10,777 bases of DNA from Vibrio cholerae ATCC 14035 (GTDB lineage: Bacteria; Pseudomonadota; Gammaproteobacteria; Enterobacterales; Vibrionaceae): assembly GCF_000621645.1 (NCBI RefSeq), contig NZ_JHXR01000042.1, positions 1-10,777 on the forward strand, written 5' to 3'. Below are positions 1,547 to 1,651 of the stretch, one piece after another; within the stretch, counting starts at the first letter, position 1; each line of letters starts with the position of its first letter. The notes under the pieces are model-generated. The model was not told the origin of the DNA. It made no database searches and saw only the letters and a list, made by a program, of their open reading frames with translations. Both the position numbers and the translations under genes were made by a program.

Positions 1547-1623
1547 GTGGTTCGATGATGAGAAGCAACCGTTTTGCCCAAACATGTATTACTGCAAGTA
1601 TGATGTTTTTATTCCACATCCTT

Positions 1624-1651
1624 AGTGCGTATTACGTGCGTTATGTTAAAT
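1624..1651. other. dif: 28-bp XerC/XerD recombination site (prophage attR, a hybrid dif2-type site)
   Basis: AGTGCGTATTA-CGTGCG-TTATGTTAAAT has the 11+6+11 dif architecture. The central region and XerD arm equal V. cholerae dif2 as I recall it (AATGCGCATTA CGTGCG TTATGTTAAAT). The XerC arm differs from dif2 at two positions and matches the CTXphi att arm. Confidence 0.9.

Follow-up and report, generated by a model that had tools for sequence, protein, structure and literature searches.

The cholera toxin genes ctxAB at the left end of the window (the whole stretch of 10,777 bases analyzed here) run into a Xer-type recombination junction, which raises the question of where in the genome, and in which lineage of Vibrio cholerae, the CTX prophage that carries them has been integrated. 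The initial annotation had read the junction as a dif2-type site and had taken its central hexamer to imply that the toxin genes lie at the terminus of chromosome II. The site itself is a 28-mer, AGTGCGTATTACGTGCGTTATGTTAAAT, composed of AGTGCGTATTA/CGTGCG/TTATGTTAAAT (here and below, slashes separate the XerC arm, the central region and the XerD arm), at 1624-1651 on the plus strand and starting 110 bp past the end of ctxB; the range originally assigned to it (1548-1651) also takes in the non-coding right end of CTX (1548-1623). The annotated combination of CGTGCG with the XerD arm of dif2 is matched exactly and only once, and no further match with up to 3 mismatches was found in the window, nor any in 200 shuffles. 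The layout is the 11-6-11 arrangement of XerC arm, central region and XerD arm given in PMC3089051, and CGTGCG is the central region of dif2, as opposed to TGTATG in dif1 (PMC3089051 Table I). Chromosome I lysogens, which read AGTGCGTATTA/TGTATG/TTATGTTAAAT, and unoccupied chromosome II loci bear out the same distinction, so the annotation is not contradicted by a different hexamer at dif2. The 28-mer follows the CTX right end immediately and combines a XerC arm from the phage with a central region and a XerD arm from the chromosome, which is the composition of a CTX attR; it is almost certainly the attR of a classical-type CTX prophage that entered dif2, on the smaller chromosome of a V. cholerae O1 strain of the classical lineage. 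The features of the window are listed in Table 1.

Table 1. Features of the window around the CTX-dif2 junction, in order of position
Feature	Position	Strand	Basis or remark
zot 3' end (CTX prophage core)	1..253	+	zot annotation in matching deposited CTX records; ORF ends at 253
Six tandem TTTTGAT heptads, zot-ctxA intergenic (ctxAB promoter)	248..289	+	counted
ctxA, 258 aa	366..1142	+	annotated ctxA match; Pfam Enterotoxin_a on the identical gene in L003-L007
ctxB, 124 aa	1139..1513	+	translation; Pfam Enterotoxin_b
Hairpin GCCCAC-CTCA-GTGGGC followed by TTTTTT	1525..1546	+	read from sequence
CTX prophage non-coding right end, up to the att site, 76 bases	1548..1623	+	identical to deposited CTX prophage records
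XerC-binding arm AGTGCGTATTA	1624-1634	+	phage-derived; same arm at every CTX attR and tandem junction
Central region CGTGCG	1635-1640	+	chromosomal dif2 type; empty sites L025, L032; PMC3089051 Table I
XerD-binding arm TTATGTTAAAT	1641-1651	+	chromosomal; PMC3089051 Table I
Flank with homologous copies, from dif1 to rtxA on chromosome I and from dif2 to yciH on chromosome II	1652..1892		alignments
Conserved dif-adjacent element, ~77 bp	1706..1782		invariant core, divergent spacer
XerD-arm-like ATTAAACATAA	1706-1716		part of the conserved element
Inverted dif-like site TATGATTATTA/GGTATT/TTATGGTAAAT (minus-strand reading)	1721..1748	-	XerD-arm match; unoccupied here
Palindrome partner ATGATTATTA	1772-1781		part of the conserved element
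Terminator-like hairpin and T-run, downstream of yciH	1866..1887	-	terminator scan
yciH (SUI1 family), 103 aa	1926..2237	-	NCBIfam NF006536, 181 bits vs cut-off 142; gene call in L003
DUF3319 protein, 127 aa	2245..2628	-	Pfam PF11782 on the identical gene
ddl (D-alanine--D-alanine ligase), 329-aa allele	2814..3803	-	NCBIfam NF002527, 431 bits vs cut-off 310
SPOR-domain protein	3954..4541	-	Pfam PF05036 on the identical gene
PatZ-like CoA-ligase/GNAT acetyltransferase, 893 aa	4748..7429	+	domain matches
LysR-family regulator	7479..8366	-	profile matches
TonB-dependent heme/hemoglobin receptor (HutA-like)	8584..10680	+	TIGR01786, 502 bits vs 324; TIGR01785, 446 bits vs 317

The phage origin of the XerC arm, as proposed in the initial annotation, can be followed in related records (loci of the comparison set carry the prefix L). 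The chromosomal arm is AATGCGCATTA, not AGTGCGTATTA, both at empty dif2 and in the attL of O395 chromosome II, which reads AATGCGCATTA/TGTGGCGCGGCA/TTATGTTGAGG and is paired with an attR identical to the window 28-mer; in two prophage-free V. cholerae loci (L025 and L032) the site is AATGCGCATTA/CGTGCG/TTATGTTAAAT, followed by the right flank of the window, which confirms the empty-site sequence. These unoccupied sites, as well as those of chromosome I, were obtained by exact-protein look-ups. The matching attL, with a chromosomal XerC arm and the 12-nt spacer of attP1, is found in L004 and L006, two of the relatives that show no mismatch, and the same 28-mer with the same flank occurs in every chromosome II CTX lysogen compared (L001, L003-L012 and L019). 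The arm AGTGCGTATTA is also part of the sites that are listed as dif1 and dif2 in reviews. A scan of viral contigs for the junction gave no match; when genome representatives were scanned for dif plus TTAAGG, only chromosome C2 of Vibrio sinus and no V. cholerae record was retrieved.

In the published model, the folded single-stranded attP(+) recombines with dif through one XerC-catalysed pair of strand exchanges, and replication completes the integration (PMC4246890). Applied to this locus, the inverted attP1 and attP2 of the phage (+) single strand would fold into a dif-like duplex (PMC3089051, PMC4246890), XerC would exchange one strand pair where the XerC arm meets the central region, and replication would resolve the junction. 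The expected products would be an inert attL, consisting of the chromosomal XerC arm and the attP1 spacer and not usable as a Xer site because this spacer has 12 nt, and an attR that would unite the phage XerC arm with the chromosomal CGTGCG and XerD arm in a regular 11-6-11 site. This established model predicts exactly the two junctions observed. At the same locus, tandem CTX-CTX arrays (L001; L018/L019) have an internal junction of the form AGTGCGTATTA/TGTGGC... and end in the hybrid 28-mer, an arrangement consistent with repeated use of this site. What the compared records show directly is the make-up of the two junctions, the sequence of the unoccupied site, the flank identity and the renewed use of the hybrid site in tandem arrays; the hybrid 28-mer probably acts both as the functional dif of chromosome II and as a target for further CTX-type integration.

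The prophage side of the junction points to the classical type. The translated CtxB carries His20, His39 and Thr68, the classical ctxB1 genotype; His39 and Thr68 mark the classical ctxB allele of CTX-cla. The assignment of the prophage type rests on ctxB and on the identity to O395, with rstR, attP2 and attL lying outside the window. According to PMC3089051, the classical attP2 (CTCGCCA) targets both dif1 and dif2, and the El Tor attP2 (TACGCCA) targets dif1 only; CTCGCCA, together with the classical rstR, is seen in O395 (L004) and in IB1346 (L001), and the attP2 differs in the El Tor RS1-CTX record L002, in agreement with the statement of the initial annotation that the att region of classical CTXphi is compatible with dif2. 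That annotation had further noted that no RS1, rstR or second prophage follows ctxB, and indeed none is present to the right of this gene within the window. Lysogens of chromosome I and of chromosome II have the same non-coding right end of CTX, and so does the CTX-CTX tandem junction. The hairpin and T-run immediately downstream of ctxB (1525-1546) are likely to be the ctxAB terminator, as judged from the sequence. Several sub-threshold Rfam matches fall on this hairpin, and it is not among the predictions of the terminator consensus scan. In the flank, the Rfam search produced nothing at the gathering thresholds and, with E values up to 10, only terminator-driven sub-threshold matches around 1500-1650.

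The heptad repeats upstream of ctxA number six in the window, seven in O395 and 5, 4 or 3 in other chromosome II lysogens. Five are present in CP196622.1, AP026559.1 and ADAI01000036.1, three or four in CTX-2 and El Tor copies, and the number varies among otherwise identical loci, to the extent that two copies within one tandem array can differ. A CTX-type prophage that does not carry ctxAB (pre-CTX-like; L008, 12197-15225) occupies the same dif2 hybrid site, and L008 is identical to the window from position 1620 onward.

Which chromosome and which lineage the junction belongs to is settled by the flank and not by the hexamer. The whole window, all 10,777 bases, aligns to the 1.1-Mb chromosome of O395 with 0 mismatches in two independent assemblies (CP000626 and CP001236), the sole difference being the heptad number, so the claim of the initial annotation that the flanking genes fit the small chromosome stands; because it has six heptads rather than seven or five, the window is byte-identical to none of the records compared. 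All zero-mismatch matches are replicons of 1.07-1.13 Mb. In three complete records of 1.07-1.11 Mb, the locus is placed 48-54% of the way along the sequence, a position that corresponds to the terminus only on the assumption that the records start at the origin; together with the flank identity, this position agrees with the location of dif2 at the terminus of the small chromosome. GC skew, taken over 10 kb, gives no information on the terminus at such a scale, and the single KOPS-like motif in the window points toward the site, which is no better than chance. O395 is listed with a solitary CTX-cla on chromosome 2 (PMC5846015 Table 2). Comparison with El Tor-type chromosome II over the 9-kb flank gives 24 mismatches and 1 gap. 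The ddl gene shows the same division: the allele of the window ends in ...CVTNT*, the 334-aa form ends in ...CVTNTLVNAK* and is found in loci fetched through DUF3319 or ctxB, El Tor-type chromosome II included, and the exact 329-aa Ddl occurs only on contigs that carry ctxAB or, in the case of L008, a ctxAB-less CTX-type prophage at dif2. The flank identity to O395, the 24 El Tor differences and the 329-aa ddl thus support a location at the terminus of chromosome II and indicate that the lineage is classical and not that of an El Tor variant.

[quoted passage not shown] What decides against it lies farther to the right, where the flank departs from El Tor-type chromosome II at the positions counted above and from O395 at none, and where the ddl allele is the 329-aa form, whose contigs, O395 among them, bear ctxAB or a CTX-type prophage at dif2, and not the 334-aa form of the loci fetched through DUF3319 or ctxB, El Tor-type chromosome II among them; the six heptads are likewise closer to the seven of O395 than to the 3-4 of CTX-2 copies. 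We therefore consider a Wave 2 origin very improbable. It is less probable still that the strain has fused chromosomes, in which case the term chromosome II would not strictly apply. Two fused single-chromosome records, of 4.06 and 4.14 Mb (L019/L040 and L025), do bear the locus, but both have the El Tor-type flank, and the replicons that match without a mismatch are all of the separate, 1.07-1.13-Mb kind. The classical strain with its prophage on chromosome II remains the reading adopted here.

The third alternative concerns the hexamer itself. Classical strains are reported to have the dif2-type sequence on both chromosomes (PMC4246890 Box 1), so that the junction could in principle be situated on chromosome I of such a strain, and the two chromosomes share homology over the initial ~240 bp of the right flank (82% over about 250 bp when the chromosome I flank is compared with the window by BLAST). 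The test proposed in the initial annotation, namely whether the DNA from 1652 onward maps to chromosome I, is accordingly ambiguous for 1652 to ~1892, which is homologous to the rtxA-side flank, and becomes decisive from yciH, the first chromosome-II-specific gene to the right of the junction. From 1926 onward, yciH, DUF3319 and ddl match the 1.1-Mb O395 replicon exactly, whereas on chromosome I it is rtxA that the flank leads to, and the window has a 41-bp deletion specific to chromosome II; the flank has already refuted a chromosome I location, which we regard as practically nil in probability. The location that the initial annotation derived from the hexamer is hence correct, but the hexamer alone is no proof of it, given the reported dual occurrence of the dif2 sequence (PMC4246890 Box 1) and the presence of TGTATG at the chromosome II locus of one V. 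cholerae genome (L031). The central hexamer alone should not be used to assign the chromosome.

The chromosome II dif locus varies within V. cholerae (L026-L031), with the forms AGTGCGCATTA/CGTGCG, AGTGCGCATTA/TCATTG, AGTGCGCATTA/CGTACG/TTATGTTAAAA and ACTGCGCATTA/TGTATG; in L029 and L033, an Hcp/VgrG cluster lies on the left and there is no canonical dif at the chromosome II position. The gene order dif, yciH, DUF3319, ddl is kept in chromosome C2 of V. sinus and in six metagenome contigs, with protein identities of 64-80%. The rtxA 3' end that appears beside the hutA region in L009, L010 and L012 was rejected as an artefact of draft scaffolds joined across runs of N, and the PatZ-like protein is so named by architecture only, all its NCBIfam matches being under their cut-offs.

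The junction at dif2 is thus the known solitary CTX-cla arrangement of the O395 type, which is already well described, and the junction mechanism and the tropism of the phage have been worked out before; the value of the result lies in the correct annotation, which places ctxAB on the small chromosome of a classical-lineage strain. More interesting than the junction, and deserving a follow-up of its own, is a conserved element in the flank next to it.

The homology between the two chromosomes extends ~240-280 bp to the right of dif (window 1652-1892 vs L002 10125-10400 and L024 1558-1830) and includes the terminator-like hairpin at 1866-1887. The 41-bp deletion, at about 1786/1787, is common to classical and El Tor (pandemic-lineage) chromosome II and is seen relative to the flanks of chromosome I and of non-pandemic chromosome II. 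It removes a matS-like sequence, GTGACATTGTCAC, which in those flanks is located ~40 bp beyond the secondary site described below and which matches the matS consensus. Sites of the matS type adjoining dif1 have been described and relocated in experiments (PMC11564523).

The initial annotation had regarded the hybrid site as the one left available for Xer recombination. This cannot be upheld, as a second Xer-type site, inverted, is present at 1721-1748, 69 bp to the right of the hybrid 28-mer and on the opposite strand, with an XerD-like arm that agrees with the XerD arm of dif at 10/11 positions. The paralogous site on chromosome I is occupied in one genome: in CP046744.1 (L038/L017; a chromosome I of 2.97 Mb), two CTX copies with a G-type attP (central region GGTGGT) are inserted exactly in it. 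The attL reads TATGATTATTA/GGTGGT..., the internal junction AGTGCGTATTA/GGTGGT... and the attR AGTGCGTATTA/GGTATT/TTATGGTAAAT (L038 3563, 10486 and 17409); XerC-type integration would be expected to leave a left and a right junction of just this form. The order along this chromosome is rtxA, the reversed flank, attL, CTX, the internal junction, CTX, attR and the reversed 69-bp spacer, followed by an intact reversed dif1 and then TLC. None of the phage-collection records has this arrangement. The precise integration of a G-type CTX array in the chromosome I copy of one genome is evidence that XerCD can act on the element; it shows that the secondary site can be used, and only that.

The published difG was considered as an identity for the secondary site and rejected. 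In a metagenome contig with chromosome-2 synteny (L063; site region 3344-3441), the primary dif is AGTGCGTATTA/GGTATA/TTATGTTAAAT, identical to 'difG' of PMC3089051 Table I, and a separate secondary element is present as well; difG is therefore a variant of the primary dif, distinct from the secondary site. A literature search for 'difG' returned nothing relevant.

The secondary site forms the core of the conserved element, which was compared in the window, in V. sinus (L023) and in L047-L064. The core is invariant in chromosomes I and II of V. cholerae, in V. sinus and in 18 metagenome contigs, presumably of Vibrio, retrieved with a 26-base core as the query, whereas the spacer toward dif is unalignable; 17/18 of these contigs have a canonical dif on the left, at a distance of 77-93 bp, and in V. 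sinus the distance to dif falls in the same range. Throughout the set, the element is separated from dif by 69-93 bp and lies on its XerD side, whether this dif is of the chr1 or the chr2 type, and the adjacent central regions vary (TGTATA, TGTACG, TGTATC, GGTATA and others). Some of the contigs keep the chromosome-2 synteny; others have different neighbors, mostly with TGTATA. The conserved block includes an upstream XerD-arm-like motif, ATT[ACG]AAC[ACG]ATAA, and, downstream, one partner of a palindrome of 10-13 bp (CTAATAATCAG ... CTGATTATTAG) with some compensatory changes. In an alignment of 18 sequences, the proposed hairpin is 88% paired, compared to at most 51% in slid controls, and its covariation score is 0.193 vs 0.099 in shuffles, the observed value being reached in 0/500, although this type of control is known to be lenient for related sequences. 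These observations moderately support a conserved inverted repeat, be it in DNA or in a transcript.

It is tempting to speculate that the element is an accessory site native to the Vibrio terminus, bound by Xer or by XerD, that doubles as an alternative attachment site for phages, but we consider this reading tentative and, on present evidence, rather doubtful. If correct, the accessory-site reading would contradict Val et al. 2008 (PMC2533119), who saw no conserved motif in the vicinity of dif1 and dif2 in Vibrio; literature searches by the element sequence turned up no relevant paper. Should the element bind XerD or XerCD in uninfected cells, it would be a new component of chromosome-terminus management in Vibrio, and the attachment function, if true, would make it a second, overlooked integration target for toxin-carrying phages.

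Comparison with the known systems relates both parts of the locus to familiar arrangements. The pair formed by dif and the secondary site resembles CTX attP1/attP2 in that both are inverted pairs of dif-like sites with the XerD-like arms facing and a spacer of 70-90 nt; unlike attP1/attP2, the pair is chromosomal and conserved across the Vibrio species sampled, and the spacer of the element has no similarity to that of attP1/attP2. A hairpin between dif and the secondary site, analogous to the folded attP, was tried and found unsupported: the ssDNA fold of 1618-1754 is weakly better than shuffles (z = -2.0), adopts a different pairing and, unlike attP1/attP2, does not bring the two full sites together as a pair. 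The El Tor CTX attR at dif1 on chromosome I has the same phage XerC arm and XerD arm as the window, and the first ~240 bp of its flank are homologous, the inverted secondary site included; it differs by the central region TGTATG, by the retained matS-like GTGACATTGTCAC and by a flank that leads into rtxA. The tandem CTX-2:CTX-2 of Wave 2 El Tor strains on chromosome 2 (IB1346, GQ466609; B33 type) shares the attR 28-mer, ctxAB and the start of the flank, but is tandem, has 3-4 heptads, differs at 24 flank positions and carries the 334-aa ddl. Native dif2 (Val et al. 2008, PMC2533119) has the same 11-6-11 layout, CGTGCG, XerD arm TTATGTTAAAT and chromosomal position as the site in the window, and its XerC arm AATGCGCATTA differs from AGTGCGTATTA at positions 2 and 7 because the phage brought the latter in. 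The closest counterpart is the CTX-cla of O395 on chromosome 2 (CP000626/CP001236), which has the same attR 28-mer and the same flank genes, with 0 mismatches over 10,777 bases, and is set apart from the window by seven TTTTGAT heptads in place of six.
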